Assembly: GCA_008632985.1 (NCBI GenBank)
Contig: QPGO01000116.1
Coordinates: 1-64,000, forward strand
Direction: 5' to 3'
Origin: Psammoneis japonica
Lineage: Eukaryota
DNA length: 64,000 bases
Numbering within the stretch: the first letter of the stretch is position 1; every line of letters starts with the position of its first letter. Positions 20,737 through 55,310 of the stretch are shown here, one piece after another. Made by a program: the position numbers and the translations under genes. The notes beneath the pieces are model-generated. The model was not told the origin of the DNA, did not search any database, and saw only the letters and a program-made list of their open reading frames with translations.

Positions 20737-20879
<143 letters not shown>

Positions 20880-25029: not shown

Positions 25030-25465
25030 AAGGTGGGTTTCCTTGAGTTTCATTTTGTCGAAGGCTCCCGCAACCCAGCTGACATCCTCAGCAAGCGTTG
25101 GGGCTGCTCCCAAGTCTGGAGCCTCCTTCATCCTCTAATGTTTTGGAACTTTGATCCCAAGGCTTTCAACCAATCTGACCTTGAATCTGTTGCAGTTGAC
25201 CCCTCAAGCAAACTGGGGAGTGACAGGATTTGAACAAAATTTTAGTTTGTCACACACAATTGTGTGTGCTCTCAGTTCCACGTGTGTCATGCGACACAGT
25301 TTGCTTTCAAGCCACACTGCTCACAAGAACAATGACAGCAGCACCAATGTTGTGACACCAGTCTTTTGGCTCCTGCAATGGTCTCTGCACAGAAACCCAT
25401 CTGCCATTTAGACAGCAGCAAGGAGTTGTTGTTTTCTTCCACCCAGTCATCTTCATTTTCTGTCA
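25030..25465 (+). mobile_element. Remnant of a family-A-related copia: RNase H C-terminus, PPT and diverged LTR (25221-25465)
   Basis: FLEFHFVEGSRNPADILSKRWG, then AACTGGGGAG, then TGACAG...CTGTCA (245 bp). Confidence 0.88.
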
Positions 25466-26469
25466 TCTGGTGACAGAAAGTTCCTCCAGCTGGTGATCTG
25501 GATGAGGAGGGCAATCCACTCAGACATGGGAGCACATGGCAGGATCATCCAGGGAAGTTTTTTGGCAAACTCGCGCCAGTTGTGTGCCAAATTTTCTGCA
25601 AGGCAAAAGTCAGCAGCAAAGTGGTGCAGAACATGCTCAACACTTGCAGCATTGTTGGTTGCACAAAGGTGCAGCACATGAGCAAGAACTTCATCAGAGG
25701 CAGCTCAACACTTGGATGGGTCACAAATCATTGATGGAGCACATCAGCACATCCAGCCAGGACATGCCATTGGGGTCTTGTGGCAGAGAGTCAAGAGCCA
25801 GGCCCTTCACAACATTGCCAGGGCAAGAGCCACAGCTGGCTGATTTTGCAGAAGAAGAAGAAGAAGAAGGTTTCACCAGCTCACTGATTCCCAACAAGGC
25901 AGGAATGTTGGAGGTGAGGGTGCGGCGTGCCTCCCTGGACAACAAAACATCACAAGATTCTGCCACGGGAGGTGCCAGGTGTTCGAAGGAGAGAGGGTCT
26001 TAGCCTTCTTGGTGGGGATGGTGCCATCTTCATGCTTCCTTCTGATTTTGCACTTGGCTCTTGACCGGTGCTTTTGTTCACACAATCATCTTCCAAGCAG
26101 TCAACCCGGGATGTGTGCCAGGCTGCTCCTTTTGACAATGCTTCCCAAACTCTTGCTCTCCAACAAGGAATTGATTTTTGCTTTGTGCACATCCCAGCAA
26201 GCAATGGAGTCACCATCCTTTGTCACCAGGTCCTTCATGTTGTTGAGTTTGTCTCTGAGACAGGCCTTTGCACAACATCCTCTTTGGACCTGACTTGTCA
26301 CTTGACTTGCATGTGACAAGAAAGCTGTTGACAAATGTGCTCCACTCCTTCTGCTGGGCAATGACCTTTTGAAAAATCTTCAAGAACCAACATCTTGTGT
26401 GTCACTCTGCTGGCACATCAGATGCACTGCATGACCATTTTGGTGACAAAGCAGGCACCATGAAGGTTG

Positions 26470-26745
26470 TGTCAGAAAATGAAGGCAAATGGCAAGAATT
26501 CAAACAACAACTCCTTGCTGCTGTCTAAATGGCAGATGAGTCTCCGCTCAGAGACCGTCACAGGAGCCGAAAGACGTGCAAGTCGGTACAATCGGGCTAC
26601 TGTCATCATTCTTGTGAGCCTTGTGGCTCGAAAGCAAACTACATCGCGCGTGAACGCGCGGAACTGAAGCACACAAAACTGTGCACGGTAAACTAAACAG
26701 CGTGCGACACTTCGCGTGCACCCAAATCCTGTTCAAATCCTGTCA
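26470..26745 (-). repeat. 3' LTR, family A
   Basis: Reverse complement of the 276-bp LTR. The PPT complement CTCCCCAGTT follows at 26746. Confidence 0.95.
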
Positions 26746-29700: not shown

Positions 29701-32169
29701 CGGTAGACTCGGTGCCAACAAACAGTTGGGCGCTGGTGCAACCAGAGTCGATGGCCGGGGTGTCGGCACAAACGGTGTCAGTGGCGAGAGGCTCGTTGCG
29801 GAGGTGGAACGTCATCGCCCTTGGGGTCAATCGCACGCAGATGACACTCGTAGAACACGTCGTCGTTCGGAATGAGGTGATCATCGAGGGCGGACGCGTG
29901 ATCGGCAGACAAGGAAGCGGACAAGATGGTCTCGTTGACAACGACACGGTGACGGTAGTTGCCGCATTCGTCAAATGGGTTGGCAGTGGGATCGTCCTGC
30001 AGGTCAGAGATCGCGTCGCACCACTGGTCGTCGTCAGTGACAGAGTGATCGAGGACGGAAGGGTCCCATGTGTCATCACCGGCAAGGATGACATGGGGCA
30101 GGGTGTCCCATTCGGCATCAGTGCAAGGTCGCATGGCAACACAAGGCAGGCCAGCCTTGATGTCAATGGGGATGACATGGCCATCAGGAGTGGCAATGCG
30201 TTGCAAGCCGTTGGGCACCTTGACAGAGCGATCGTTGACATCCTGTTTGTGCCATTCGAGCTGGCCGCAGGAATGGATGGTCTTGCCCTTTCCCGTGCAT
30301 GCGCACTGATGGAGGATGGCGATGACGGGACCACGCTGGGTCTCAATGACGGCACCAGCGGTGACAATGGGGATGTCCACCAATTGATGATCGTCAATGC
30401 CCTGAACGTCGACTTGGCGAGAGGTGCGTGCAATGACGCGAACGTCGTCGCCAGCAATGCCGCCGTTGGCCCCACGATCGACTAGAGCGCCAGTGCGTGT
30501 GGAGCGATGAGCAGAGGCAGAGTAAATGACATTGTGGTTGTGACGCGGCGGCAAGTGCGGCCGTTAAGTTCTGTGTCATCTGCAGAAGCTGGCGGGGTAG
30601 AGGAAGCGGCGGATGGCCCGGTCGACTGGCATTGGGGGCTTGGTTAGGAGAAACAGACGTTGCAGATCACCGGGTGGCAGTGGCTTGCGCTTGGTGAGGT
30701 GCGCCAGGATGGGATCATCCAAAGTGGCGTCCACATGTGTGGCGGGGTCACCACAGTCAGCAGGAGTCGTGTTGGACAAGTTGACATCACCGTCACTCCC
30801 AAGGTGTTGGTCGTGAAGGTTGGCCGTAACAGACTCATGGCAGTTGCTGGCTCGCGGGTTGCGGGGAGGGGACGAGAATGCTCAAGGATGATCGCCTTGG
30901 AGGAATCGGGCAACGAATCCCAGAGCCGTTGGTGGTCGGGAGGGAGACGTCTCCATTGGACACCGGTGAGGCTGGGACCGCGGGTGCAGGCAGCATTGGC
31001 TTGAAGGACGTCAACGTCGCTGTCAATGTCGTAGAACACATCGTCGGACGGTTCCTCGGAGCAGATGTCGTGTGCGTGCATGGCGCGTCGGGGAGCTCTG
31101 GGTGTCGTCTTGGGTTGAAACGTGCTGTCGTACTGAGCTGCCGCGGAGAGGAGCAAGCCACAGCATTGATCGTATGTGAGGCTCTTGCCACTCTGCGCAC
31201 GATGCTGATCAGCTTGGTTCTTGACAGCACGGAGTTCCTCGACAGGGTGCACGGCATTCTCGAGCATGACGCACTTCTGTCCTTCAGAGAAGTGGTCACT
31301 GGCAGGGATGAGTGCCTCGCACTTGCACAACTGATCTTGCCAATGAAGGATGAACCCGTGGGTCGGACCTTTCCAAGTGCCATCACCAAGACGTGCGGTG
31401 GTGAGGTGCGTGAGCAGGGTGGAGGACTCGATGGATGCACGGGTGGAGGCAAGCGTGCACTCAGACAAGGAGCGGCAGACGGTCTGTGCGTCAGAAGACC
31501 CCACATTTTCGCGAATGAGAGCCTTGCCCTTGTCGGTGAGAAGGATGCGTTCGAAGACGGCGAACATGTGCTTTTGCTGTTCAGCAAAGAGCAGTTTGTC
31601 TTCGGGCTGGTCGGTTTGTACGACGAGTCTAGAATGCACTCGACGTCTTGGGCACGGGCTTGTGCCACAAGTGAGGTGTGCCAAGTGTGCCACTGCTTGT
31701 CGGATTTGAGAGCCGTGAAAGCGGTGGGATCACGCTTGATGCCTCGCTTGAAGTCTCGCACCGGGTCGCGTGCCTTGGTCGGGTTGGTGACGTGTGGAGG
31801 TGCAAGGGGTGAGCTGCCGATGGACACAGAAGACATGCAGTCGGGGCTGAGGCGGCAGGCAAGGAACTCGTCATGCGCGAACAAAGAGGAGTCGTTGGCA
31901 ACGTCAAGACCTTTGTGTGCTTTGACAATGCACAGACTGACCAGTGCTGCTAACATGTTCTTATAACCACGGGGCAAAGGGATTGCATCAGTGCCATTGT
32001 CGCACTCAAGCGAGTCGATTTGGGACGGCATGAACGTGAACAGTTCCTGATGCGAGTCCGTGCCGTCTTGGGCCAAAGCCAAACGAAGAGGACTTCCAGC
32101 ACCTTGGGCAAGCACGGTTCCAACAACGTGCTCGAAACCATCGGTTTGTTGCTGACGAGTGAGAACCAT
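26693..32169 (-). pseudogene. Frameshifted copia gag-pol
   Basis: Gag from MVLTR (ATG 32169) with DFKRGIKRD, protease LVDRGANGG, integrase SEPHQQHQNFAERR, RT AVYVDD and RNase H. Split over several frames. Confidence 0.9.
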
Positions 32170-33100
32170 GGCAGACAAAAGTGGTGTCAGGACAATCAGT
32201 TCTGGTTGGGAAGCGAAGGCAGACTCGAAACTTGGGTGAGAACAGACTTGACTTGAGGTGGACTTGACTTGAAATCTTGAACTGTCTTAAAATCAGAAGT
32301 CGCCGGGCTTTGTTGTCCCGTTCGTTGTCAAGTGCTAAACTTCCTGTCCGGTCCGTAGAGTTGTGCCGGCACGTCCGAACCCGCAGCTGGTGGCGCTTTG
32401 GGTTGCTTACGAGCGGAGCAGCGGGTTGTAAACCCCTGCAGGCAAGCTGACTGGAGGTGGACAAGACCCCCGAACCGTTCTTGTTTTATGTCGGTTGGAT
32501 TTCCCGATCAGGCTGGCCAGTTGACGCAGGCGTTGGGCGCTGTGGACGAACGAACAAACGCGGGAAAGCACCCTCGCCCCAACGCAGGCTGCAATCACGG
32601 CTGCTTGCTCTCACAGTCGTCCTCGTGGACCCAGCAGAACTGTGGAGCACCAGCAGTCCGGGGCAGATCAGGTGCAATGGACTCGGTGTGCTTGTAGAGT
32701 GGTGGCAAAACCGCAGTCCGAAGAGTGGATAAAGGTTCTTGGCCGTGAAGACATGTGTGTGTGCACACACATGTGTCTTCAGCGACTAAGATCCTTGAAT
32801 GTGCAGGGTTCCTGACCGTCAACCGAGGAACAGGTGTGTCAAGGGATGTTGATCAAGGACAGACTTGGATGTGACCGTTGAACATAAGTCTACAGCGATC
32901 AAAGGTAGCACAATCAATCCAGATGTCCAGCGGCAAGGAGACTTGACGGTGACGTTAACTTCCTGCCGATGCCCTGGTATTGAATGCGCGTAGACTTGCC
33001 GATGTATGTAGAATATATACGGAGGTCCACGTAGAATTGAAATGGCGTCGTTGGTAAATCAACGACGACGATGGCGGTTGCTCAATGGGTTGACGATGAG

Positions 33101-33114
33101 CAAGACTGTTAATC
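33101..33114 (-). promoter_or_regulatory. Putative primer-binding site complementary to a tRNA-Asn(GUU) anticodon arm
   Basis: Directly after the 5' LTR the element reads GATTAACAGTCTTG, the complement of CAAGA-CTGTTAA-TC, which is a 7-nt anticodon loop with GTT. Confidence 0.6.
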
Positions 33115-33389
33115 TGACAGAAACTGAAGGCAAATGGCAAGAATTCAAACAATGACTCCTTGCTGCTGTCTAAACAGCAGATGAGTCTCCGCTCAGAGAC
33201 CGTTGCAGGAGCCGAAAGACGTGTAAGTCGGTATAATCGGGCTACTGTTATTGTTCTTGTGAGCCTTGTGGCTCGAAAGCAAACTACATCGCGCGTGAAC
33301 GCGCGGACTAAAGCACACAAAACTGTGCGCGGTAAACTAAACAGCGCGCGACACTTCGCGCGCATCCAAATCCTGTTCAAATCCTGTCA
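33115..33389 (-). repeat. 5' LTR, family A
   Basis: Reverse complement of the LTR (275 bp). Retains more TpA than the other copies. Confidence 0.95.
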
Positions 33390-35900
33390 TTTGTCATTGT
33401 CATGATGCACTCAGCTCTTGATTCCATTCTGGCTGAGGTGTCTGACTCAGCCAAGTGCAGTCAGGAGATGATGAGAAATCAACAACAGCATTTTTCATGG
33501 AATCTAGAACAATTGTGCATGCATGAGAAGAATTTTCAAGCTTGCGACAGGCAGCTCCTTGATGTTTTGCCATTCAGGAATTGTGCTGTGCTTTCAGGGA
33601 AGAGTGCAGGTGTGGCATGCACAGAGACCTTTTTTTGTTGTGTTTTTTTGTTGACACCACAAAGTGCAAAGAGGAGAGTGCACACAGAGACTGCCCACCC
33701 CAAGTCACCAAGAATGTCATGCTGTCCAATGATGTGCAAACACAAAAACAACTGGACAAAATGTCTTGCAAGCAGAGAGATGCAATGCATGGCATCTAAT
33801 GCCCCCATCATGCACTTCACAGATGCAGCCCAGCAGAGCTGGTGAGAACTTGTTGCACATGTGCTGTGGTGAGGATGTGAGCACTCAGTCATGGAATGAC
33901 CATTTTCTGCAGTGTCAGGACAGTGCATTGTGAAATCAATTTCCCCTGTCTTGAAATTCAAATTTGAAAAATGGCGTGCTGACCCAAGGTGACAGACAAG
34001 CTGTTTGGTGCAGAAAGTCCAGGAGTGACACCCAGCTTGTGCACCCCATTGGACAAACCTTGGTGGAGGACCAAAAAGAGTTCAGCATGCACCCAGCAAC
34101 TTCAACTTGGATGCACCCAGAATGCGTCATTTGCAAGATGTGCAGTGAGACTTGTCATCTTAACAAGGATTCTTGCCTCTGGATGGTGGAATGTTGGACA
34201 ACAAACTTGGCACCAAGGGCTTTGGTGCTGGCCAGCACTCTCCACCATCGCAATGGCACAACATTCCAAGTGGCTCTGTTGGGAAGTGCTTCATCACAAC
34301 ATTGGCAGAGTTGCTGCACACGGGCTCAAGACATGAAAGCAGAGCTTGGAGCAGGTTCACAGTGTGCCAATCAGTGATTTTGCAGCAGGGTTGCAATGCA
34401 GAAGGAGGCAAGGACATCAGGACCTGGGACATGGACAAACACAAAATTCTGGCCCAGTCAATGATCAGCTGCTTGAGTGCAATCTAAAGTCTGCTCAGAG
34501 GGAGGAGATGTGCCAGAGCAGTGTGTCACAAAACATTCAATGGAGTGGCATCATGAGAAAAGCCAAAGGGAGCATCATCACAGGCACATTTCTGAGGAGT
34601 GGGAAAAAGGTGGAATGCTTGCCTGGATGATGCTGATGAGAAGACCAAAAAGATGCCATGTTTGAGAACTTGGAGTCAAACACCTGGGCCAGAGAGTTCT
34701 GGGAGAAGATCATTTTCACACATTCAGCAAGCCACCTGGGATCCAAGCTGTCATCATTGCTTGCTGATGGCGCCATCAAGACTTTCACATGAAGACTGTC
34801 TGCAAGAGCACAAGTCTTGGCAGATCTGATGCCAGTGCAGCATCAGATGGCTTCTCCATTGCAAAAAGGCCAGCAGGTTGCTTGGAGAAGTGTGGAGCAT
34901 GTTCACAAATTGGCTGGCAAATGAGTCACTCTCTGTGGGATGCCTGCCATGCACACTCATGGCAAAAAGAAGCAGCTGATTGCACCAGACAAACATGCCT
35001 CTGGATGCCCATCTGGCTGGCACAGGAGAGGTGCAGCAGAGAGCCACAGCCAAAGCAATTCTTTCAGCAGTTGCCAGAGCAAAAGCCAAGGTGAGAGTGA
35101 TCCACTGTCTGTTCAGTGGAACGACCCTCTCCACTGACACCCCAACACACCAGGAAAATCAAAAGCATGGCAAAAACAGGATTGAAGATCTTCCAGTGCA
35201 GAAGAGAAGTGGTGAGAGTCATGACTGCCAGACAAACAGAGAGACAGCAAAATGGAAACAAAAAATCCCTTGCGGCACCCTGTGCTGAACAATGGCTGAC
35301 TCACAAAACCAGTCAAATCAATCATCAACAACACCAACAGACTGGGAGGTTGCTCAGAGTGTGAGCAGGACAGCAAGCTGGGAGGTCTGCGGGGTGACAC
35401 TAGAGTGTGCTGTGAGAAGGCCTTCCTGACCTTGCCCAATCCAAGAAGAAATCAGGTGGGCGACAGGAAGAGCCAAGCTGGCATCTGACAACAACTCCAA
35501 GCTGTGCAGCCGCCCCCACACAACAATGGGGAGCTTGCAACATTGGCAGGGTTCTTGGCAGACTTGGACTTCTCCCACCAGCTCACAAGCTGAATGATCA
35601 TTTTCCACATGCACTCACCCCTTGACATGCTGGTGACTCCACAGCAGTGGGAAAATCTGGGTCCTCAGAGATTTTTTCTTGACTCTCATCTGAGCTGAAG
35701 GCCCCGCCCAAGCATGCATGATGGACACTCCTGTTCTGCCAACAACTCTGAGAATGCCCTGGCAGGCCAGTCCCAGAATGCAACCTGCTGGAAAATGCCA
35801 GGACCTGCTTTGGAGACCACAGTTCATTGGCGAGATGGAAGCACGCAACAGATGGTTGGCAGAGAAAGCTGAGTTGTGGACCTCTGTCATGTCATCCAAG
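33390..35900. other. Unidentified degenerate repeat-derived sequence, depleted of both TpA and CpG
   Basis: Same composition as the identifiable relics, with no credible ORF. An abrupt switch to normal composition occurs at ~35905. Confidence 0.55.
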
Positions 35901-36112
35901 GCAATTCGTACCGTATCGCATCAAGGTGGCACACAGCAAATGAGCGCGACATAATGCGCATCCCTCCCAACGCAATTCTCACAAAAACCACCGCACCACA
36001 AAAACAAAAATGACGATGGTGAGTTCCTGAACAGCTCCGACCACGATTTCCATGCCAGTGCTAGAGGATTGGCACCCTGTGATCGTCTTTGTTTGATAGG
36101 ATTCTTCACAAG

Positions 36113-39769: not shown

Positions 39770-41402
39770 ATGGAAGAGCTTCAGCCAATCCTCTTGTCTA
39801 CAGCGTTGTTTCTAGCCACGTCCCTCTATTTTGTTCGGATAGAAAGGTTAGATGCCGATCGTGACAAGTACGGGACCAATTATGCGACGCCGAATTGGAA
39901 AAAGAAGAGAGAAACCTTGTCGCCGTTAAAGCGACTTAGCAAAGAAAACGTGTCTGCCCTTCGATCCAGGTACTTTTCGAAGGCTGTGAGTGTGTCCTAC
40001 TCAAATTCAGGCGCACTGATGATTGTTAAGGTATGTACAGTAGCTGTGTCATGATATCGCAAAGACTCTTTGAGGATTAAAGTGTCAGTTCACTTTTCTA
40101 TTCGTCCAGGGTAAAGGCTCTATGCTTATGGATGATTCAGGACGATGGTATCTTGACACAAGAAACAACGTGGCTCATGTTGGTCACTGCAATGAAAACG
40201 TAGTCCGAGCTGTACAGGAGCAGGTTGCAACACTAAACACAAATACTCGATATCTGCACGCCAACGCAAGTGTATTGGCAGAGAGGCTTATCGGAAAACT
40301 TGTGAAACCATTAGAAGTTGTTTTCTTTGTCAATTCTGGAAGCGAAGCGAACGACTTGGCGTTACGATTGGCACGAGCATTCACGAAATCCAAGAATAAC
40401 ATTGTGGTGGACGGCGGTTATCATGGCCATACATTGTCGTGCCTCGAGGTCAGTCCTTACAAGTATGAGCACTCAAAAGAATTTGATTTAGGTGGCGACT
40501 CTCGTAGTCCTGGAGAGCATGTTTTCAAGGTACCGTGTCCCGACATATATCGTGGACCCCATCGAGATGCGACATCAGCTGGTGCTGACTATGCTGAATA
40601 TGTAAAGGATGGATGCCAGTACTACAGACAGAAGCAGGATAAAGTCGGTGCATTTATTGTTGAGGGTGGCATGAGTGTCGGCGGAGTCATTCTTCCGCCA
40701 ACAGGATATCTGGAGGCGAGTGTTGGAGCTGTACGTGAGGCGGGAGGAGTTTATATTGCTGATGAAGTGCAAACAGGGTTTGGGCGGCTAGGCGAATGTT
40801 ATTGGGCATTTCAGCATTCCTTCGATAAGAGCACAGAGTCTTCTGTAGTACCTGACATTGTAACGGTAGGCAAGCCTTTCGGAAACGGAATGCCACTCGC
40901 TGCGGTTATCACAACACGCAAAATATCCGATGCTTTTGAATCCATGGGCGTAGAATACTTCAATACCTTTGGTGGAAATCCCGTTTGTTCAGCTGCAGGT
41001 CTTGCCATGCTTGATGCCATGGATTCAGAGAATCTCCAGCAGAATGCGGCCAAGGTAGGGAAGTACTTCAAGAGTCAGTTTCTCATTCTTAGGGCCACTA
41101 CATTGGATATCATTGGCGACGTCAGAGGGTCGGGACTGTTCCTTGGTATTGAACTCGTTCGGAATAAAATGACACTTGAACCCGCCACAATTGAGACTTC
41201 CTTCCTTTGCACTGTCCTAAAGGAGAAATACGCAATTCTAACAAGCATCGATGGACCATGCAATAATGTGCTGGTTGTTAAACCGCCATTGGTGTTTAGT
41301 ATGGATGACGCTGATTTCTTCATCGAAAGCTTTGAGAAGGCCGTTCTTAATGACTTGGCAAAGGTGAAAGACATACAGTCGTTATCCATGACGCCTACCT
41401 GA
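39770..41402 (+). CDS. Class III PLP-dependent aminotransferase (AGXT2L / ethanolamine-phosphate phospho-lyase-like)
   Basis: NNVAHVGH, FVNSGSEANDLALRLA, ADEVQTGFGR, DIVTVGKPFGNG and FNTFGGNP. Intron 40031-40109. Confidence 0.92.
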
Positions 41403-41550: not shown

Positions 41551-42465
41551 TCAGGCTTCCTTGACCGAGATACCATCCGATCCAGCAATGATGACAGCTG
41601 TTGTCATATCACAGAAGAGACCATGCTCTACAACTCCAACGACATTCTTGAGCTCCTGGCCCATTGTAGGGGCATCTTTAATTGGCTCCTCAAAGTGGAG
41701 ATCAACAATGTAGTTGCCATTGTCGGTAACAGCCGGTTCGTCACCATCGATTTCGTTGTTGGAGGAGGATCCAAGACGCAAAACAGGCTTGCACTTTCCT
41801 TTGCACGAGGGCAAATCGCCAATTGTGCGCATGGTATGTTCGTGGCAGAAGGGAACAATCTCAACAGGGATAGGGAATCCAGGTCCAAGACCATCGCATA
41901 TCTTGGATTCGTCCACTAACGAAAACGGAAACACCAATTTAGGTTTGATACAATACCAGCAAGAGACAACAGGCCAGGTCGGTAGTTTACTTCTCAACCA
42001 CTTACCAATAACGATGAACTTGTCAGAGCAGACCTCCACAATCTTTTCCCTGAACAAAGCTCCGCCGCCTCCCTTGGTAAGGTTGAGATCAGGATCGACT
42101 TCGTCGGCACCGTCTATCGCAACGTCCAGCTTGGAATGGGTGTCGAGTGTCACCAAGGGAATGTCAAGGCTCTCAGCTTGCTCTTTTGTACGAATCGAGG
42201 TAGGAATGGCAAGGATGTCTTTGAGTTCGCCAGACTTGAGCAATTCGCCAACGCGCTCGACAGCATAGTAGGCAGTGGATCCCGTTCCGAGTCCAACCAC
42301 CATGCCGCTCTTAACGTAATCATCAACGGCCTTGTATCCGACCATCTTTTTCAATTCGTCCTGGCTCAACGCCATGGAAAGCGAAGTGCTCTTTCGGGAA
42401 ACAAAAGCAGGGCTGCTGAACGCAGCAGCCGAAGCCATAAGAGTAGCAGCGATAGTGAGACGCAT
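41551..42465 (-). CDS. rpiA: Ribose-5-phosphate isomerase A, plastid-targeted
   Basis: GLGTGST, DGADEVD, KGGGGALFREK and GVVEHGLF. Bipartite presequence MRLTIAATLMASAAA-FSSPAF. 90-bp in-frame intron 41916-42005. Confidence 0.95.
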   Translation of the reverse strand: MRLTIAATLMASAAAFSSPAFVSRKSTSLSMALSQDELKKMVGYKAVDDYVKSGMVVGLGTGSTAYYAVERVGELLKSGELKDILAIPTSIRTKEQAESLDIPLVTLDTHSKLDVAIDGADEVDPDLNLTKGGGGALFREKIVEVCSDKFIVIGKWLRSKLPTWPVVSCWYCIKPKLVFPFSLVDESKICDGLGPGFPIPVEIVPFCHEHTMRTIGDLPSCKGKCKPVLRLGSSSNNEIDGDEPAVTDNGNYIVDLHFEEPIKDAPTMGQELKNVVGVVEHGLFCDMTTAVIIAGSDGISVKEA

Positions 42466-42829: not shown

Positions 42830-43642
42830 ATGTCGTCACAAGAAGAATTGAAAAAGCTCGCGGGTTACAAAGCTGTTGACGACTACGTCAAGAGCGGCAT
42901 GGTGTTGGGGCTGGGAACAGGGTCGACCGCCAAGTATGCGGTAGAACGAGTTGGTGAAAAGCTCGAGTCTGGTGAACTGCAAGATATTATTGCTATTCCG
43001 ACATCTGTCCGTACAAGAAAACAAGCTGAAGGTCTCGGTATCCCGTTGACAACTCTCAACGAACATGGTGAATTGGACGTGGCAATTGACGGAGCCGACA
43101 ATGTCGACCCAAAGCTGAATCTGGTAAAGGGTGGAGGAGGAGCGCTGTTTCGAGAAAAAATTGTGGAAAATCGGGCAAAGAAATTTGTTGTGATTGGTGA
43201 GTGCACGACATGACTTGATTTGCCAACCAGTGCGTGTCATTTTTGGCTAGGCGTTCTGATCTCCTTTGTTTATGTTGCAGTGGACGAATCCAAACTCTGT
43301 GACGGGCTAGGACCTGGATTCCCAGTTCCAGTAGAAATTGTTCCATTTTGTCATGAGCACACAATTCGTATGATTTCGAATCTAGATTCGTGTAAAGGCT
43401 GCAAACCGCAACTTCGAATGGGTTCCTCCTCCAACAATAGGGTGGACGGTGACAAGATTGCCGTTACAGACAACGGCAACTACATTGTGGATTTGCACTT
43501 TGAAAAGACCATTCAAGACGTTTCTATAATGGCCAACGAGCTCATTAACGTTGTTGGAGTTGTAGAACACGGACTGTTTTGTAACATGGCGTCTGTTGCG
43601 ATTGTTGCTGCCCGAGACGGGATAAGAACTTTGAATCCATAA
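42830..43642 (+). CDS. rpiA: Ribose-5-phosphate isomerase A, no evident presequence (likely cytosolic)
   Basis: Same motifs, with DGADNVD. Intron 43197-43280. Confidence 0.93.
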
Positions 43643-47078: not shown

Positions 47079-47661
47079 ACAACGCGAAATCCGGAGTTTG
47101 TTGAAGAAGTGCTAGGGCCCTACTCAAATGTTGATATGTGTGTGTTGGTGTAGTTTTTCCTACGCGTCTGCTTTGTAGTTCTGCACCAGAGAGATTGGGT
47201 AGGGCTTGTTACACAATAGATTTAGGTTTCCTAGCCCTACATCTTAGTGAATACTTTTAGTTGGGGAAGGGGCGGGCAGGCATTTTACAGCGATATTCCG
47301 TTCGACTCGCTCGTTTTCATGACCAGAGGTCGTCGAGCTTCGTCGCCTTTCGACGGCCAGTTCGCCTAGCTGTTTGCCAGCAGCATTGTTGACAGGTGGC
47401 CATAGTTTAAAGACTGATGCAACTATTGAACTGTAACACACAACGTAGATCATCAAAGCTTCGTCAACAACGTCCAACGTCTTCGCTTGCCGAGGTAATG
47501 ACAGTTTTGGAAGTTTATTGGTTAGGGAAACTACCTCTACTCTAGAGCTAGAGTAGTACGCGGATTGACTTCGGCGCGCGACACAGGCAATGGTTTTTGT
47601 CTGGACCTCAGACCTCGCAACTCACGGTCCGCCCGCCACCCACGAGCGAACCGCGAGGTCT

Positions 47662-47895
47662 AGTCACGACTCAACGTCATTCTGGTCGCATCTCACGACT
47701 ACAACCCAGACTCAGATTTTCTCTTCGAAATAATTAGCTCATCACAAAATCGATTCAAACAGAAGCAACGACATTCGTCATAATTTCTAGACAACGACTT
47801 TCAACAAGCGTCTGTTTACCTCTGTCGCCATTCATATTGCTACCAACCTCCGAGGTCTTGTCCATCCTACTCAGCTACAGGACTGCATCTCGACT
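47662..47895 (+). repeat. 5' LTR, family B (AGTC...GACT)
   Basis: 227/234 identical to the 3' LTR by manual alignment. Confidence 0.95.
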
Positions 47896-48057
47896 GGTTG
47901 TAGAGACCAATTTGCGCGTTGACGAGAGCTCCTGACCGAGTCATCGTCACGGACGCTTTCGGTTTTTGATTTTGAAGCAAACCCGGGAAATAGCTGAGTC
48001 TCTCTCGCTTCTCTCGTCTTCACTCTAACAAGAACCTCCCACACTGCACTCTCTGTC

Positions 48058-51000
48058 ATGGCCACCATCGATCCAGATGTTCTGGCAAAGGCGTTTGCCG
48101 ATGCAATGGCCGCTGACGCCACGGCGACTGCTCCTCCGGCTCCAACCAAGCCGTTACGTGGTGGAATTCACCCAACCCACGGGGTTTACATTGGTGGTTC
48201 CAAACTCAACAACAACTGCGAACAATCCAACGATGGAACCTGCCGACTCGCCTCTCAGCGCCATCATCCCAAGGCTCTTGACTCGACAGAACGATCTCTC
48301 CGCGATCAACAAGCTTCCGCAATGACTTCCAAGTTCAACGGTCGACTTGAGATTTCGGACGGTCCCATCAACGAGCTTGACAAGGACCATTTCGTCAAGA
48401 CTGTTCGAGATCTGGCAGAAGCCCACGGTCAGCAGACGTTCCACCATGTCAAGGACAGCGACGACAAGGTTCAACATGTCTTCGACCATCTTCACGAGTT
48501 TACTGTGACCGATCTCGTGAACGAGCACACGGTTAGGAAAGCAGCTGCCGATGATGCCAAGTGCGACGAGATCGAGCTCGACGATGTCGGGCTCTCTCAA
48601 CTTCTCGTTCACTCAAGAATCACCAATGCCTTTCGCGAGAAAATCGAGACCAAGTTCAACCATCTTTCGGACTGCCAAGACTACCCTGGATCTGTTCTGT
48701 TCATGATGGCTCTCGACACTTGCAATGCCAGCGCTCTAACGGATGTTGAGACGGCCAAGAAGCAGCTAGAAGACCTCAGTTTGGTTGACTGTCCCGGCGA
48801 GGATTGCACGGACTTTGCTGCCGAAGCTCTTCGCATCGTGAAAATCATGCAGACCGACTGCGCGCTTCCGGCGAACACAAGCTCCAAGCTGCTCCACAAG
48901 ATCTCCTCTACGTCCTCTGAATGCTTCGATTGCCGAGTCTACAACAAGCTCGACGACGTCAAGGCTGTGGAACGCAAGTGCCGCCTCAAGAATCCTGCTG
49001 ACATCGTGTCCGACAGTGATTGCAGAACGCTCGGACCGGTCGGTGTCATTGCGTGGATTCAAGAGCAACACAACGAACTCGTGAAGGACGGGGAATGGCC
49101 TGCATTAGTCGCCAAGCTACCCGAGAGTAATCTTTCGACTACGGATGACCCTGGGAAGACGAAGCACTGTCATGGTTGCGGTCTCGAGGGGCACACCAAG
49201 AAGACGTGTCCGAAGTGCAACGCCAAACCGCCGCGCGACGATCCTCCTCCCAATCCGCCGCCTGCAGACGACCCTTCCAAGAAGAAGAGGCGACCCATCG
49301 CTGTCTGGCGCACTAAATTTGACGGAGAAACGAAGAAGGACAAGAATGGCAAGGAATGGAAGTGGTGTGCCACGTGCAAGGCGAAGGGTGCCGACAAACC
49401 TGGAATCCACCAGAAGCACTCTACCGCGGAACATGCCGACGACCGCAGGCAACCTCCCAAGGAGACCCCAGCCGGGAATTTGTCTTCCGTTGCTGATCCG
49501 GATAGTGGCGTGCCCATGGGTCCGCCCGCTCAGACCACCAAGGCACCAGAGGGAGACGAATCCGACCCCAACGAGTTGGTTTTCACGGGAATGTGGTGCG
49601 CGGCTACGGATCCCGTTGCCGACCCGGATTTCTGTTCCGCCCCTGTTGCCACTGCAATTGTTGTTACTCCGGCTTCTTCGGCCGAGAGGGAGAGCGACAC
49701 AGTCGTTAGCACTGAGGTGGTTTGCATCGAAACGAGCCCACCTGTACTCACCTCAGTCGTGGATCCAGTCGTGTCTCCCATCGTGGTTGAGACTGTCACT
49801 CCCGAAGACGCCGATGACTTCTACGAACACTCCGACGCTTTCTCCACCTTTGAAAACGAACCACCGGCTATTGAGTTGTTTCCGGCCTCGAAGCTGTGCT
49901 CCATCAAGCATCCAGATGAGTTCTTTGATGCTCCCGCACATTTGACGGATATGCTGTCAGACGACACCAAGTTAGATCTCATCCTTGAACACGACGTACA
50001 CTTTGAAGACGCACACTACGACTTGCCTCCGTGTGTTGCGTATCGTGGCTTCGATTTCTACGATCCAGAGGTCCTGGATGCGGATGGTTGTCACGAGGAC
50101 GTCGAAGACGAGCCCACTTCGCGTCGCTCACTCTTGGGTCGAGTCAAGCTGTTCATGTTCTGGCTCGCCGCCATGTTTTGGGAAACGGTGCTACATCTTT
50201 GCTTTGCTCCGATCCCATGTGTTCCTCGAGCTCTACGCCGCCAGCGCAAACTCCCAACTTTGCACGGGTTTCCAGCCTCCTGGATGGTCCTGTCCGTTGC
50301 AGTGATGGTGTGGTCAGCAGTTTACGCCGGTCAACAGCCCGAGTGTCCCTTCTCGCACGTACCAAGTCGTTTTTCGACCGCCAGCTCTCAAGTCTACCAC
50401 ATTGTGGAAGAGCTAGATGACCGGATAGTGTCAGATGCGGGGTCACTGTTCGAATGTCACAGGATCAAAGGCACGCAAGTGCTCACCGAGTTTGTCGCGC
50501 GCCATCCGTCACACGCACTGAGCACTCGTCTCAAGGCCTGCTGGGAGAGCCTGGAAGTAGCTGAACGGTCTGATGCGACAGACGAATCAGCCTTCTTTGA
50601 CACCTGTGAGGAACTGGAACCTCTCGACGACCAGAAGCATTTCTTTGACGCTCTTGAGGACTTCAGCCCGGATTTCTTCCGGTTTGACGAGCTCTGTCTG
50701 CCGCATCACATCGTGGACACCACCCATTTTCAAGACCCTGTGGAGCTGTTGGAGGAAGCAAGTGTTAGACCAGTCGTCTATGACACCTCCACCATCCAAC
50801 TGCTCACCGGACAATCACAAGCTGACCTCCTTGCATCCGATCCGCAGGCACTCATCGGTCTGTCGGACGAGGCTCTCACGGTCGTCATGGACACTGGTGC
50901 CACGTTAGCCATTGCCCCCGACAAAGATGATTTTACGGGGCCTGTGACTGTTCCCAAGAAACCCTTACAGATCAATGGGATTGCCAACGGTCTTACCATC

Positions 51001-54000
51001 CAGGGTGCCGGTCCGGTTGCGTGGGTGTTCACAACGCCGAGTGGGGCTGCCATCCAACTGAACACCATGGCATGCCACGTCCCTGGAGCCCGTCAGCGCC
51101 TGCTGTCGCCTCAACGCCTCTTCAACGAAGAGAAGGGGATACGTGGGAAGTGTGAGGGCGATGAAACCACTTTCCGTTTACATGTTGACGGGACAGGCAA
51201 GTTGGTCATGCCATGTCATCCATCAAGCCACTTGCCCATTGCGTCGATGACCAAGGGCGCATCTGCCGCTCCTCAAGTGAACCTTCAGGTCCTTAACGAG
51301 GAGAATCAAAACCTCACGGCAGGCCAAAAGCTTCTTCTCGAAATGCACGCCCGTTTTGGCCATTTGAACTTTGGTCGCGTCCAAGCACTTCTCCGCGCAG
51401 TTCCGCTCCTTTCGAACCGTTTCAAGTCCGCAGCGAAGTGTGACCACCCAAGATGCGAGGTGTGCGAACATGCTAAAGGTCACAGACGCTCTCTTGGATC
51501 TACTCACAAGTCGACAGTCCCTGAACGCGACGGGGCCCTTCGAGCTGACCATCTTCGACCGGGTCAGGCTGTCAGCGTTGATCATTTTGAGTCGCGCCTT
51601 TTAGGCCGCACCTTCGACTCTTGTGGCAAAGCCACGTCCAAGCAATTCAAGGGCGGTTGTGTCTTTGTCGACCACGCCTCTGGCCATGTCCAGGTCGAGC
51701 ACCAACTAGGTTTCTCCGCTGTTGAGACGATGCGCGCGAAGCAAGCGTTTGAGAAACATGCTTTGGACCACGGGGTCATCGTCCAAGAATTTCTTACCGA
51801 CAGTGGCGCTTTCAAGGCCAACGCTTTTGTACAACACACACGAGAACATGAACAACGTCTCCGTTTTTGTGGAACCAACGCCCATCATCAGAACGGCGTC
51901 GCAGAGCGGGGCATCCGCAGCATCTCCAACATGGCGAGAGCGATGTTGCTTCATGCATCAATCCACTGGAAGGGGGGAATTGACAGCTCCCTATGGCCCA
52001 TGGCAGTTTCTCATGCCACGCACATCTATAATGTCACCCCAACTTCCAAAGGACATTGCCCAGCGGACATTTTCACCGGTTCGACAGTGCCAAGACATCG
52101 GTTGCGCGACATTCACACATGGGGATGTCCAGCGTACGCACTTGACCCGACCCTCGCTTCCGGGAAGAAGCTCCCGCGTTGGGAGCCTCGCACTCGTCGC
52201 GCTTTGTTCGTGGGACTCAGTGCCATCCATTCCAGTGAGGTTCCTTTGGTCCTCAATCTTCAAACTGGAAGTGTTGCACCTCAGCATCATGTGGTCTTTG
52301 ACGATCTCTTCACTGCCGCACCATCAATCGAGAGGGAGACGGATCCACCTGATCACTGGGAACACTTGTGCCTCAACCAATCGATGTGCATCCCTCTGGA
52401 GAAGGATCAGGCAGTTCATTTGCACGATGAGTGGCTTGCCCCTCCAGAGCGTCAACGTAAAGAAAGAGAACCAGCCAGAGCAACACGTGTTCGCGGGCAT
52501 TTTGAGCCTGCTCCATCGATTGCTGTGCTGGATTCACCCACTTCTCGCGACGACGTTGCCGATCGAGTCGCACCTGTGACTTGGCAGCCAACGCCACCAG
52601 TCCCACCTGCGACTCAAACTCCTGCAGACTCTACGGACTCTACACCAATTCAGCCACCTGAACCTCAAGACAGTGACGGACTTCCGCCACCCGAAGCGCC
52701 GACGGAACCAACAGCTCCTCCCCCAGTCGAGACACCTCCTGTGACGAATCCAGAGGGAGTGCCAGGGCTGCGACGGTCTTCACGGTCAACCAAGGGACAG
52801 TTCAACTCTGCCAAGTTTGTAGATGAGGTCCACTTCAGCTCCGTCAAGGAAATGCCGCTGCCGATCAGACACGAGGCTCAACTGGCATGTCTGGCGACTC
52901 TCGAGACGGATTTGGACAGTGGTGCCATCAATGTCGGCGATCCACGAGCCTACGCAGCTAGCAAGAAAACCAAGGACCCTGATGTGCCTTCGTTGCACAA
53001 TGCTCTGAAAGGTCCGGACTCCGACGAATGGATTGAGGCAATGAAAATTGAAGTCAACGCACTCATGCATCGTCGAGCCTGGAAAGCAGTCGAGCGTCAG
53101 CCGCATGTGAATGCACTTCCAGGCACATGGGCACTAAAGCTCAAGAGACTCCCAGATGGAACCCCTCTCAAGCACAAGGCCCGACACTGCATCCGCGGTG
53201 ATTTGCAGAAAGAAGGAGTCGACTGCTTCGAAACCTGCGCGCCGGTTGTGCAATGGTCCAGCATCCGACTCATGCTCACTACGGTGTTAAAGGAGGGATG
53301 GACCACACGACAAGTGGACTGTGCCACAGCCTTTTGCCAAGCTGATGTCGCCGAGGAAGTTCACACAACACCGCCGAAGGGATTTGCGCCAAGGTCGGGA
53401 CTCAACATGGTTCTCAAACTTTTGAAAGGACTGCACGGCCTAAAACAGTCTCCCAAGGGCTTCTACGAGAAGTTACGAGCTGGTTTAACCGAGCGCGGAT
53501 GGGCACCTTCAGCCATAGATCCCTGTTTGTATTTCAAAGAGGGCATGATGCGTGTGGTGCACGTCGACGACACCGTTTTTGCTGGAGCTTCAGCTGAAGC
53601 TCTAGAAGCCGAAATTCGCAAGTTAGGAGTCTCCGACGACGAACATCGCCACGCATTTGAACTTAGAGACGAAGGAGAAGTCGGTGACTTTCTCGGTGTC
53701 AAGATCGAAAAGCTCTCCGAGGGTCGATTTCTGCTCACTCAACCCGGTCTAATTGACAAGGTCCTGCGTGCCGCACAGATGCAGGATTGCAATGGAGCAT
53801 CTGCTCCAGCTCTACCTGCGGCTGTTGGTGCCGACACGGACGGCCTGCCTTTTGATGAACCCTGCGATTGTCGCTCAGTTGTTGGAATGTTGATGCACTT
53901 GGCAGCGAACAGCCGGCCAGACATTGCATGTGCCACACATCAAGCAGCTCGATTCTCGTTTGCGCCCCGAGCGTCCCACGCTGCTGCAGTGAAGCGGACA

Positions 54001-54648
54001 CTCCGATGCCTCAAAGCAACTGCTGCTGAAGGTCTCATTCTCAAGCCTGCGCAAGATCATCGAGTTGATTGTTGCGTCGATTCTGACTTCGCGGGGTCAT
54101 TTGGTGTGGAAGATGGTCAAGACCCAGTTTCTGTCAAGTCCAGGACTGGACACCTTGTCCACTGCGCCGGCTGCCCGCTCATCTGGGTGTCCAAGCTGCA
54201 GACTCTTGTGGCATTGTCGACTGTGGAAGCGGAACATGTCGCACTTTCTCAAGCTGTGCGCGATCTCATCCCTGTTCGTGAAGTTCTCAAGGAGCTCAAC
54301 CACCACGCATTCGGAAAGTCTGACCGCCAAAACCCAATCACGACTCACTCCAAGGCTTTTGAGCTCGCAACCCAAGGCACCGATGACTCGCCTGTAGAGC
54401 AGAATGTCCTGCCTACGTCCGTTGTGTACGAAGATAACTCCGCGTGCCTCAAGTTCGCACGCATGCCCAAGTTGTCTCCGCGAACCAAACACATCGGCAT
54501 CCCGCACCACTGGCCCAGGACTAAAGTCGAACAATTGGAGATCGACATCCAACCTGTCAGCACTCTAGAGCAACTAGCCGATCAGTTCACGAAGGGACTA
54601 CGGACCGATGCATTCCGCACGGCTAGAAAGGCTCTTATGGGCTGGTAA
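48058..54648 (+). CDS. Copia gag-pol polyprotein, open frame but probably inactivated by missense changes
   Basis: Zinc knuckle CHGCGLEGHTKKTC, protease MDTGA, integrase HARFGH...CEVC / VDH / TDSG / NGVAER, RT with HVDD in place of YVDD, and RNase H CVDSDFA / ADQFTK. Confidence 0.93.
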   Translation: MATIDPDVLAKAFADAMAADATATAPPAPTKPLRGGIHPTHGVYIGGSKLNNNCEQSNDGTCRLASQRHHPKALDSTERSLRDQQASAMTSKFNGRLEISDGPINELDKDHFVKTVRDLAEAHGQQTFHHVKDSDDKVQHVFDHLHEFTVTDLVNEHTVRKAAADDAKCDEIELDDVGLSQLLVHSRITNAFREKIETKFNHLSDCQDYPGSVLFMMALDTCNASALTDVETAKKQLEDLSLVDCPGEDCTDFAAEALRIVKIMQTDCALPANTSSKLLHKISSTSSECFDCRVYNKLDDVKAVERKCRLKNPADIVSDSDCRTLGPVGVIAWIQEQHNELVKDGEWPALVAKLPESNLSTTDDPGKTKHCHGCGLEGHTKKTCPKCNAKPPRDDPPPNPPPADDPSKKKRRPIAVWRTKFDGETKKDKNGKEWKWCATCKAKGADKPGIHQKHSTAEHADDRRQPPKETPAGNLSSVADPDSGVPMGPPAQTTKAPEGDESDPNELVFTGMWCAATDPVADPDFCSAPVATAIVVTPASSAERESDTVVSTEVVCIETSPPVLTSVVDPVVSPIVVETVTPEDADDFYEHSDAFSTFENEPPAIELFPASKLCSIKHPDEFFDAPAHLTDMLSDDTKLDLILEHDVHFEDAHYDLPPCVAYRGFDFYDPEVLDADGCHEDVEDEPTSRRSLLGRVKLFMFWLAAMFWETVLHLCFAPIPCVPRALRRQRKLPTLHGFPASWMVLSVAVMVWSAVYAGQQPECPFSHVPSRFSTASSQVYHIVEELDDRIVSDAGSLFECHRIKGTQVLTEFVARHPSHALSTRLKACWESLEVAERSDATDESAFFDTCEELEPLDDQKHFFDALEDFSPDFFRFDELCLPHHIVDTTHFQDPVELLEEASVRPVVYDTSTIQLLTGQSQADLLASDPQALIGLSDEALTVVMDTGATLAIAPDKDDFTGPVTVPKKPLQINGIANGLTIQGAGPVAWVFTTPSGAAIQLNTMACHVPGARQRLLSPQRLFNEEKGIRGKCEGDETTFRLHVDGTGKLVMPCHPSSHLPIASMTKGASAAPQVNLQVLNEENQNLTAGQKLLLEMHARFGHLNFGRVQALLRAVPLLSNRFKSAAKCDHPRCEVCEHAKGHRRSLGSTHKSTVPERDGALRADHLRPGQAVSVDHFESRLLGRTFDSCGKATSKQFKGGCVFVDHASGHVQVEHQLGFSAVETMRAKQAFEKHALDHGVIVQEFLTDSGAFKANAFVQHTREHEQRLRFCGTNAHHQNGVAERGIRSISNMARAMLLHASIHWKGGIDSSLWPMAVSHATHIYNVTPTSKGHCPADIFTGSTVPRHRLRDIHTWGCPAYALDPTLASGKKLPRWEPRTRRALFVGLSAIHSSEVPLVLNLQTGSVAPQHHVVFDDLFTAAPSIERETDPPDHWEHLCLNQSMCIPLEKDQAVHLHDEWLAPPERQRKEREPARATRVRGHFEPAPSIAVLDSPTSRDDVADRVAPVTWQPTPPVPPATQTPADSTDSTPIQPPEPQDSDGLPPPEAPTEPTAPPPVETPPVTNPEGVPGLRRSSRSTKGQFNSAKFVDEVHFSSVKEMPLPIRHEAQLACLATLETDLDSGAINVGDPRAYAASKKTKDPDVPSLHNALKGPDSDEWIEAMKIEVNALMHRRAWKAVERQPHVNALPGTWALKLKRLPDGTPLKHKARHCIRGDLQKEGVDCFETCAPVVQWSSIRLMLTTVLKEGWTTRQVDCATAFCQADVAEEVHTTPPKGFAPRSGLNMVLKLLKGLHGLKQSPKGFYEKLRAGLTERGWAPSAIDPCLYFKEGMMRVVHVDDTVFAGASAEALEAEIRKLGVSDDEHRHAFELRDEGEVGDFLGVKIEKLSEGRFLLTQPGLIDKVLRAAQMQDCNGASAPALPAAVGADTDGLPFDEPCDCRSVVGMLMHLAANSRPDIACATHQAARFSFAPRASHAAAVKRTLRCLKATAAEGLILKPAQDHRVDCCVDSDFAGSFGVEDGQDPVSVKSRTGHLVHCAGCPLIWVSKLQTLVALSTVEAEHVALSQAVRDLIPVREVLKELNHHAFGKSDRQNPITTHSKAFELATQGTDDSPVEQNVLPTSVVYEDNSACLKFARMPKLSPRTKHIGIPHHWPRTKVEQLEIDIQPVSTLEQLADQFTKGLRTDAFRTARKALMGW

Positions 54649-54669
54649 GCTCTCTCGGTTGAGAGGGAG

Positions 54670-54903
54670 AGTCACGACTCAACGTCATTCTGGTCGCATC
54701 TCACGACTGCAACCCAGACTCAGATTTTCTCTTCGAAATAATTAGCTCATCACAAAATCGATTCAAACAGAAGCAACGACATTCGTCATAATTTCTAGAC
54801 AACGACTTTCAACAAGCGTCTGTTTACCTCTGTCGCTATTCATATTGCTACCAACCTCCGAGGTCTTATCCATCCTACTCAGCTGTGGGACTGTATCTCG
54901 ACT
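54670..54903 (+). repeat. 3' LTR, family B (AGTC...GACT)
   Basis: Follows the PPT and is followed by the TSD GGTCT. Confidence 0.95.
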
Positions 54904-55310
54904 GGTCTAATGCTTTTTTCGCGAGGTCCAACGGTTTTTTCAAAAAAAGCACTGGACCTCGAGACCGCGAAAATGGAAAAGCGAAGCTGTCGATCATTGC
55001 TGATCAATTGATCATTCATCATTCCGCCATGACAACAACAACCTGCCGCAGTTGCCATCAAGTGCCCTGCTTGCCTCTCCCTGTTATTGAATCAGTTTGT
55101 ATCGAAAGAGCGTCTTCAGTCGGTTTATCATTGAGTACCTAAGGTCTGATGGCCTGTTTGTAGCGTGTGAAGCAGGTGGTAAGTGGTAAGTCCAGACGGA
55201 TCCGCGGTATTTTCAGTCCTGCTTGCGAAGCTGACACCGTGTATGCACGTTTCAAGCTCAACAGTCTCTGGAGACGAATCTCTCCTTACTACGAATCACT
55301 TGCACGAACT

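Follow-up and report, generated by a model that had tools for sequence, protein, structure and literature searches.

Element A and its insertion site

The DNA studied here (the window) comprises 64,000 nt of contig QPGO01000116.1 from the diatom Psammoneis japonica, and the repeat statistics given below are limited to repeats that lie inside it. The window carries a Ty1/copia retrotransposon, element A, whose two long terminal repeats (LTRs) differ from one another at seven positions, always by exchanges among TA, CA and TG. An earlier note on this DNA had read these differences as traces of a mutator that strikes TpA in chromosomal DNA after integration. The insertion consists of the following parts:

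47657-47661 (+): left copy of the target-site duplication (TSD), GGTCT, 5 bp, read directly; the paralogous empty sites hold this word once
47662-54906 (+): element A, a TSD-flanked Ty1/copia LTR retrotransposon, recognised by its LTR pair, RVT_2, TSD and purine tract
47662-47898 (+): 5' LTR, with bounds set by the stretch that matches the 3' LTR in register
48058-54648 (+): gag-pol polyprotein of Ty1/copia type, a single open frame of 2196 codons, with RVT_2 at residues 1674-1919
53560-53562 (+): codon CAC, His1835, in the catalytic motif of the reverse transcriptase (HVDD, compared with the consensus YVDD in 44 homologs)
54661-54669 (+): polypurine tract, directly upstream of the 3' LTR
54670-54906 (+): 3' LTR, in register with the 5' LTR
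54904-54908 (+): right copy of the TSD, GGTCT, whose first three bases overlap the LTR-identical stretch

The LTRs form a direct repeat of ~240 bp with copies 7008 bp apart, and 47895 is the probable end of the 5' LTR proper. The same six bases, GGTCTA, are found at both ends of the element (47657-47662 and 54904-54909), which leaves the register of the TSD ambiguous by one base; contigs from paralogous unoccupied sites hold GGTCT(A) only once. A Pfam domain search of the polyprotein found the RVT_2 reverse transcriptase (E = 3.7e-33) and an SH3_retrovirus match (E = 7.9e-5) that falls below the curated cut-off of that profile, while an integrase core (rve) was not detected in it at E <= 1e-3. 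Given the LTR pair, the RVT_2 frame, the purine tract, the TSD and the empty sites with a single copy of the word, element A is one TSD-flanked insertion of a Ty1/copia LTR retrotransposon. The element lies in a low-copy repeat in which the word GCGAGGTC recurs (47400-47660 and 54907-54950) and which has a depth of ~339, compared with ~55-70. Several single-copy contigs represent paralogous sites of this low-copy repeat that do not hold element A.

Homologs of the polyprotein, one of which is named from Fragilaria crotonensis, are up to 58% identical to it and carry gag_pre-integrase and RVT_2. Element A resembles the large Ty1/copia polyprotein elements of diatoms, which we take to be those called 'CoDi' in the literature, in its RVT_2 domain, its single gag-pol frame (~2100-2300 residues in this group), its short LTRs, its 5-bp TSD and its purine tract. 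It differs from them in that the best homolog is 58% identical, in having the lowest tyrosine content and in the replacement of YVDD by HVDD. Tyrosine makes up 0.73% of its polyprotein, whereas 120 homologs have a median of 3.0% and none falls below element A. With HVDD as its catalytic motif, this copy may be enzymatically dead despite its open frame.

Differences between the two LTRs

The two LTRs align over 237 bases without gaps and with seven mismatch columns, all of them transitions (0 transversions). The coordinates and letters given in the earlier note proved exact for all seven pairs (5' LTR/3' LTR): 47701 A/54709 G, 47829 C/54837 T, 47860 G/54868 A, 47877 A/54885 G, 47878 C/54886 T, 47879 A/54887 G and 47886 C/54894 T. 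In the 5' LTR, CA or TG is found at 47829, 47860, 47878 and 47886 and TA at 47700-47701 and 47876-47877, and the 3' LTR has TG at 54708-54709, 54884-54885 and 54886-54887 and TA at 54837-54838, 54867-54868 and 54894-54895. All seven differences are of the TA<->CA/TG type, as had been claimed: five are singles, in which TA in one LTR faces CA or TG in the other, and the remaining two form one adjacent CA<->TG doublet. This doublet adjoins one of the singles and corresponds to the second TA of GCTATAGG, the ancestral sequence that had been reconstructed there. The CpGs are indeed unchanged between the LTRs (0 of 13 differ), and no other position differs either. Decay of methylated CpG was considered as a cause of the LTR differences and was rejected on this count.

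A transition can create or destroy TA at only 53 of the 237 LTR positions. Tested against composition, as had been proposed, the mismatches give P = 1.3e-4 if they are taken as six independent events and P = 2.8e-5 if taken as seven. Under the reconstruction in which TA is ancestral, the pair holds 14 ancestral TA sites, i.e., 28 site-lineages. Seven of these changed, compared with none of the 418 other nucleotide-lineages (Fisher P = 1.8e-9) and none of the 26 CpG site-lineages (P = 0.010). Under the same reconstruction, four events fall in the 5' LTR (three T>C and one A>G) and three in the 3' LTR (all A>G). The divergence between the LTRs is 3.0%, with no difference at the 209 positions outside ancestral TpA (237 less the 28 nt of the 14 TA sites). 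With seven events at TA and none elsewhere, mutation at TpA outpaces the background in this pair, in agreement with the earlier reading.

The purely TpA pattern is peculiar to this young LTR pair, since other repeat pairs of the window also show CpG differences and some others. A low-depth contig of another insertion (85 nt, corresponding to 54820-54904, with two other letters) fits the 3' LTR version, as would be expected of a copy with TA ancestral, and is a hint only.

Direction of change

Residues 1250-2196 of the polyprotein were aligned with 44 homologs (those with a match of >700 residues among the top 45 of 120 by rank), and columns with Tyr in at least 70% of the homologs were counted as conserved Tyr columns. 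Over this region, element A retains 409 of 498 conserved columns. It retains Tyr in three of the 21 conserved Tyr columns and has His in nine and Cys in six, the products of TAY>CAY and TAY>TGY. By comparison, it retains 15 of 16 conserved His and 8 of 9 conserved Cys, and none of these 25 columns has turned to Tyr. In a leave-one-out analysis, the homologs retained a median of 95% of the conserved Tyr, with at most two His or Cys each.

When codons and their neighbours were analysed, 35 of the 89 changed conserved columns corresponded to one TA>CA/TG step, one to a CpG loss and none to a TA gain. Ile>Val changes are preceded by T in 8 of 10 cases, against a baseline of 25% (P = 4e-4), and all three Val>Ala changes read GCA. 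Both strands are affected, as the earlier note had stated, with 15 T>C and 20 A>G changes on the sense strand of element A.

A host gene served as control, namely the aminotransferase at 40122-41402, 7 kb from the element, the best named relatives of which are all diatoms (up to 68% identity). Counted against the first 60 of 120 listed homologs, it retains 14 of 15 conserved Tyr and shows no replacement by His or Cys. Host gene and element A thus contrast clearly in Tyr retention (Fisher P = 3e-6).

The reading frame itself is informative about direction. Under TA gain, the frame at 48058-54648 presents 106 targets at which a stop would be created, and at the intensity observed in the LTRs it would stay open with P = 3.9e-4. 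Because TA loss cannot turn a sense codon into a stop, the 2196-codon frame stays open while conserved residues are overwritten.

The claim that TA is ancestral therefore holds at the level of the family, where outgroups, composition, a second family (element B, below) and the open frame bear on direction; at the seven sites themselves the ancestor was deduced and not read. For the process, the direction TA to CA/TG is settled, and at the seven sites TA is the likely ancestor by extension of this pattern. An outgroup was also sought by scanning metagenomes with a 21-nt LTR word, which returned four loci that share only that word with the LTR, by chance.

Copies of element A in public contigs

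Element A is covered ~100 times deeper than its flanks (~5000 compared with 55-340), which corresponds to a family of ~100 copies. A total of 2957 public contigs were aligned to its region, 819 of them at least 99% alike. Variation among the copies consists mostly of transitions (327 of 394 variable places). We classified 40 of these 394 places, at which element A differs from nearly all copies, and took the state of the other copies as ancestral. Element A is less TA-dominated in this comparison than the LTR pair is; the counts are given where the interpretation is weighed.

A second copia family, element B

Two copies of another copia element are found in the window:

1-4619 (-): element B copy 2 (B2), copia, 94% identical to copy 1
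26470-33389 (no strand assigned): element B copy 1 (B1), copia, with a 570-N gap at 28889-29458 inside

Over 3.5 kb, the two copies share 11 conserved TA and show 28 TA<->CA/TG differences and 22 adjacent CA<->TG doublets. Beyond 210 conserved CG and 64 CG<->CA/TG differences, the same 3.5 kb holds 29 transitions of other kinds and 23 transversions. A four-state model (TA, CA, CG and TG) with a free ancestor was fitted to these differences and reproduced the counts, with a TA loss of 0.55 per direction per lineage, a TA gain of 0 and a CpG loss of 0.072. A model with equal gain and loss was rejected (likelihood-ratio test, 2*dlnL = 38). Other transitions amount to ~0.009 per site per lineage (hand calculation), and from the comparison with the fitted rates it therefore follows that a TA nucleotide mutates at ~60 times the background and several times as fast as CpG.

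The two copies are not equally eroded. TA losses number 24 in B2 and four in B1, compared with 39 and 25 CpG losses (Fisher P = 0.027). This is a hint, and no more, of activity in episodes as opposed to a steady clock. Element B showed no strand-coordinated runs (runs test P = 0.59 and 0.69), such as a processive single-strand enzyme would leave. No matching 5-bp target duplication was seen next to the ends of the copy at 26470-33389. LTR copies of element B also stand in direct orientation at 4293-4619 and 6301-6627, on either side of a 42-bp tandem array (4942-5650, 16.9 copies, 86% matches), and an older relative of this LTR, 72% identical, is located at 25036-25465.

TpA depletion across the window

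Two large blocks of the window are poor in TpA, as judged from the ratio of observed to expected counts (o/e):

1-11000 (no strand assigned): TpA-depleted, CA+TG-enriched repeat DNA with element B copy 2, the LTR copy at 6301-6627 and unannotated DNA of TpA o/e 0.04-0.13
13001-36000 (no strand assigned): second TpA-depleted block, TpA o/e 0.01-0.29 per 2 kb with one N-gap bin at 0.41; holds element B copy 1

The TpA o/e of the whole window is 0.33. Of the 2-kb bins, most over repeats stand at 0.01-0.16, those within element A at 0.23-0.27 and those in genic DNA at 0.45-0.69, and CA+TG climbs to 1.96 where TpA is lowest. We also scored 63 windows of 1 kb with the cut-offs of a preprint on Bigelowiella natans (Mettrop et al., bioRxiv 10.64898/2026.01.13.699255, 2026), namely rhoTpA <= 0.43 and rhoCA+TG >= 1.52. 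Twenty-one pass both cut-offs, 19 pass that for TpA only and 23 pass neither. The 21 all cluster in the repeat-rich 1-36 kb and genic DNA fails, so that the signature is restricted to the repeat-rich part. The edges of the depletion are sharp at the borders of elements and genes (33.4 kb, 36.0 kb and the ends of element A), and the block stops at the histone deacetylase gene (36089).

At its most extreme, the depletion leaves 900 bases of complex sequence (22000-22900) without any TA. Little is left of either TA (o/e 0-0.11) or CG (o/e 0.03-0.35) at 33.5-36.0 kb. No tetranucleotide context was found to protect or expose TA: in the repeat-rich half, all NTAN words stand at 0.02-0.065 of their CA/TG counterparts.

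Three stretches (33501-36000, 20001-26000 and 6001-10000) are unannotated and look non-repetitive, with TA o/e of 0-0.11, CG of 0.03-0.39 and CA+TG of 1.7-2.0; one open reading frame tested from these stretches gave no Pfam match. They may stem from an old transposon, a viral insert or another source. The repeat-rich half has long open frames of 180-540 codons that overlap one another and occupy both strands (e.g., 28534-30554). Such frames arise in TpA-poor DNA because TAA and TAG are rare there.

Comparison with known mutation processes

The preprint describes a hypermutation restricted to TpA for integrated viral DNA of the chlorarachniophyte B. natans (Mettrop et al., 10.64898/2026.01.13.699255). 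Its mutation-accumulation lines yielded 231 mutations within two integrated viral regions; 230 of them were A>G or T>C, and every one of these 230 fell on TpA. The de novo rate of TpA>TpG/CpA was ~6e-7 per site per generation, in some lines only. TpA-poor, CA+TG-rich clusters are reported there to be enriched in reverse-transcriptase and DDE domains and often to be unannotated, with a TpA value of 0.45 for the viral region, and the authors propose an ADAT2-like adenine deaminase that acts on DNA (10.64898/2026.01.13.699255). The preprint mentions neither diatoms nor retrotransposon LTRs (10.64898/2026.01.13.699255). We found no report of such TpA hypermutation in a diatom in the literature.

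The two cases are alike in the TpA>TpG/CpA transitions, in the foreign or silent nature of the DNA and in the TpA-poor, CA+TG-rich clusters, the changes described here being known from sequence comparison and not de novo. The restriction to some lines there may have a counterpart in the unequal erosion of the two element B copies here, which is a hint of episodic activity only. They differ in host, since B. natans is a rhizarian and P. japonica a stramenopile, i.e., another branch of the supergroup, and in target, with inserts of giant viruses and virophages in the former and LTR retrotransposons plus unannotated repeat DNA in the latter. Moreover, the erosion is deeper in P. japonica (TpA o/e 0.01-0.1 and 900 bp without TA, compared with 0.45), and strong CpG decay accompanies the TpA loss in the oldest blocks. 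By analogy, the element A finding would be of the same kind as the B. natans process, with a new host lineage and a new class of target.

Repeat-induced point mutation (RIP) represents the familiar process with this pair of dinucleotides, running from CA/TG to TA. The RIP of ascomycete fungi shares with the present case that it acts at the DNA level, is transition-only and dinucleotide-specific, marks repeated or foreign DNA on both strands and inflates the divergence of copies. It makes TpA out of CpA/TpG (C to T) and thereby adds TpA and stops, whereas here TpA is destroyed and CA/TG accumulate.

Deamination of 5-methylcytosine at CpG likewise has a self-complementary pyrimidine-purine target and yields TG/CA, and it works in the same old repeats (CpG o/e 0.03-0.35 at 33.5-36 kb; 64 CG<->TG/CA differences in element B). 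Its target is CG and its change C>T, in contrast to the T>C or A>G at TA seen here, where 0 of 13 LTR CpGs changed. Editing by animal ADAR and APOBEC enzymes is similar as a hypermutation of retroelements of the deaminase type, with ADAR-type enzymes preferring an adenine that follows U or T. These enzymes act on replication intermediates, and their changes are strand-asymmetric and identical in both LTRs, whereas those in element A are strand-symmetric and differ between the LTRs.

Proposed process and alternative explanations

We consider it probable that the seven differences are footprints of a TpA-specific mutation process that acts on the chromosomal DNA of transposons and of silenced or foreign DNA. 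Such a process would work on either strand, convert 5'-TA-3' to CA or TG (T:A to C:G at TpA) and run tens of times faster than other substitutions and several times faster than CpG decay. The lineage of element A would have been exposed to it for long. Since the last duplication of the LTRs, each LTR would have lost roughly one in four of its TA sites, with no other type of site changed, and the conserved residues overwritten would include the Tyr of the reverse-transcriptase YVDD motif.

We infer that the seven events arose in place after integration, on chromosomal DNA, and the targeting appears to follow the silenced or foreign state rather than the sequence context. Duplex chromosomal DNA fits best, because one-sided changes would be expected if the sense RNA or a single cDNA strand were edited. 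The earlier claim that mutation followed integration is thus supported by an LTR pair within a TSD-flanked insertion, but it assumes a correct assembly in a family of ~100 copies and the absence of ectopic gene conversion. With regard to chemistry, a tentative candidate is the reaction put forward for B. natans, in which an enzyme deaminates the adenine after T to hypoxanthine, which is then read as G. An alternative would be a modification of thymine at TpA that mispairs with G, and thymine hydroxylation (of the 5-hydroxymethyluracil or base J type) is a possible route.

Several observations weigh against this interpretation. The sites are clustered, six of seven falling within the final 70 bp of the LTR. 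The LTRs are less depleted in TpA (o/e 0.54-0.59) than the interior of element A (0.18-0.32), a contrast not expected of a uniform in-place process. Among the 40 classified places of the copy comparison, 10 CpG losses (with one transversion at CpG in addition) outnumber four TA losses; there are also two TA gains and six CA>TG doublets, and these doublets exceed what a homogeneous TA rate would give (the rest are one CpG gain and 10 other changes). No LTR site is among these 40 displayed places, so that the ancestral state at the seven sites was not read from the copies.

In element B, 22 doublets were seen compared with ~11 expected at a homogeneous TA rate (hand calculation), while the fitted model gives 19, and parsimony on four element B LTR copies yields two apparent TA gains. 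To explain the doublet excess, one has to assume differences in rate between sites, episodes or a contribution of CpG intermediates. Many of the element B doublets could also result if CpGs fell into two classes. Finally, the great depth of element A over its flanks, its 2957 aligned contigs with 819 near-identical ones and the N gap inside element B bear on the trustworthiness of the assembly.

These last points would be accommodated if the seven differences were imported by a chimeric assembly, ectopic gene conversion or cDNA-mediated conversion, in which case the TpA erosion would be real and the LTR pair silent on post-integration timing. Import would also suit the position of six of the seven sites in one 58-bp stretch, distant from the unique flank on the left of the 5' LTR, and the variation between copies, which has the same transition-rich and TA/CA/TG-rich spectrum. 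However, the intact TSD and the existence of paralogous empty sites indicate a single insertion. Moreover, the 230 other LTR positions, including the 13 CpGs, are identical although many CpGs vary among the copies, accounting for 10 of the 40 displayed places. The clustering is not significant once the positions of TA are taken into account (6 of 16 site-lineages in the 3' part compared with 1 of 12 in the 5' part, P ~0.1, hand estimate). Import is thus unlikely in our view, though not negligible.

Editing within the retrotransposition cycle would place the changes earlier, as A-to-I conversion of RNA by an ADAR- or ADAT-like enzyme or as an attack on single-stranded cDNA, with the LTR differences stemming from an edit made late on a single cDNA strand. 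As the B. natans preprint states, adenosine deaminases favour a U or T on the 5' side (10.64898/2026.01.13.699255). The stronger TpA depletion of the interior of element A compared with its LTRs agrees with such editing, and the uneven losses in element B (24 TA in B2 and four in B1, 39 and 25 CpG, P = 0.027) suit extra episodes better than a simple clock. Yet editing predicts one-sided changes, whereas the sense strand has 15 T>C and 20 A>G, and the LTRs three T>C and one A>G (5') and three A>G (3'). Strand runs are absent from element B (P = 0.59 and 0.69), and the old unannotated DNA at 33.5-36 kb lost TA and CG together, as fits decay in place. Chromosomal DNA is also where this signature arises in B. 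natans (10.64898/2026.01.13.699255). We regard editing in the cycle as very improbable.

A third explanation reverses the direction: in a RIP-like or methylation-driven C-to-T change at CpA/TpG, TA would be derived and CA/TG ancestral. The two LTRs alone leave the direction formally open, and two TA gains appear both in one element B LTR (by parsimony) and among the 40 of 394 places. In addition, diatoms encode DNMT4 enzymes related to fungal RID, as stated by Hoguin et al. 2023 (PMC9998398). RIP, however, enriches TpA, while the repeats here stand at a TpA o/e of 0.01-0.3 with CA+TG up to 1.96, and the outgroups give 35 TA losses and no gain, with a fitted gain rate of 0. The frame of element A would have been closed with P = 0.9996. 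Furthermore, the LTR doublet would need both LTRs to have changed at one CpG while 26 other CpG site-lineages stayed intact. RIP of the fungal type is rejected on depletion, CA+TG excess and the 35 losses without gain, and a reversed direction of any kind is extremely improbable. In-place mutation of TpA to TpG or CpA remains the reading that we carry forward.

Implications

We would cautiously entertain, as a possibility and not as the expected outcome, that diatoms or this lineage hold a DNA-level editing linked to defence or silencing that removes TpA from transposons and other foreign DNA. It might be homologous or convergent to the rhizarian one and possibly extend throughout the supergroup of stramenopiles, alveolates and Rhizaria (SAR). 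Chromatin state, and not repetition, would direct its effector, which might be a DNA adenine deaminase that prefers a T on the 5' side or a base modification specific to TpA. If true, this would be the mirror image of RIP: conserved residues would be overwritten (Tyr to His or Cys, also in the reverse-transcriptase active site) without stops, leaving dead elements that look intact along with spurious long frames, and speeding up LTR clocks.

TpA-restricted A:T>G:C hypermutation is so far documented in one 2026 preprint (10.64898/2026.01.13.699255). If the pattern is genome-wide, P. japonica would be the second organism with it, the first stramenopile and the first clear case for LTR retrotransposons. 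This would suggest a process that is old or recurrent among marine algae and would open its study in a group with good genetic tools. The process may also be restricted to certain lineages, because the 120 homologous polyproteins have a normal Tyr content.

In such species, dating by LTR divergence is inflated, as the earlier note had foreseen: the pair has seven events at TA and none elsewhere, i.e., 3.0% compared with 0 at the 209 non-TpA positions. Because divergence is zero at positions that were never TA, such dating would greatly overestimate the age of the insertion. An uninterrupted gag-pol frame is no proof of youth or activity either, as element A reads HVDD. Likewise, TpA-poor DNA yields long frames on both strands that gene finders may call, and 'orphan' proteins that are poor in Tyr and rich in His and Cys may be eroded genes of transposons or viruses.

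Other features of the window

Within the TpA-depleted region, an island at 11210-13357 (-) holds a frame of 715 codons with a TpA o/e of ~0.4 and 2.9% Tyr and without a Pfam match. A pair of inverted repeats of 132 bp, 93% identical (13788-13919 and 20189-20320), surrounds ~6.4 kb of TpA-poor DNA with long frames, and a weak DEAD-helicase match (E = 0.003, below cut-off) lies between them. The segment 13788-20320 may be a DNA transposon with terminal inverted repeats.

The host genes near element A encode a histone deacetylase, a class-III aminotransferase (the control used above), a ribose-5-phosphate isomerase, an SDR protein, an EF-hand protein and UFD2, and they are nearly intron-free. Over the ribose-5-phosphate isomerase region, two inverted segments (41605-42363 and 42839-43588) are 68% identical to each other and probably represent an old inverted gene duplication.

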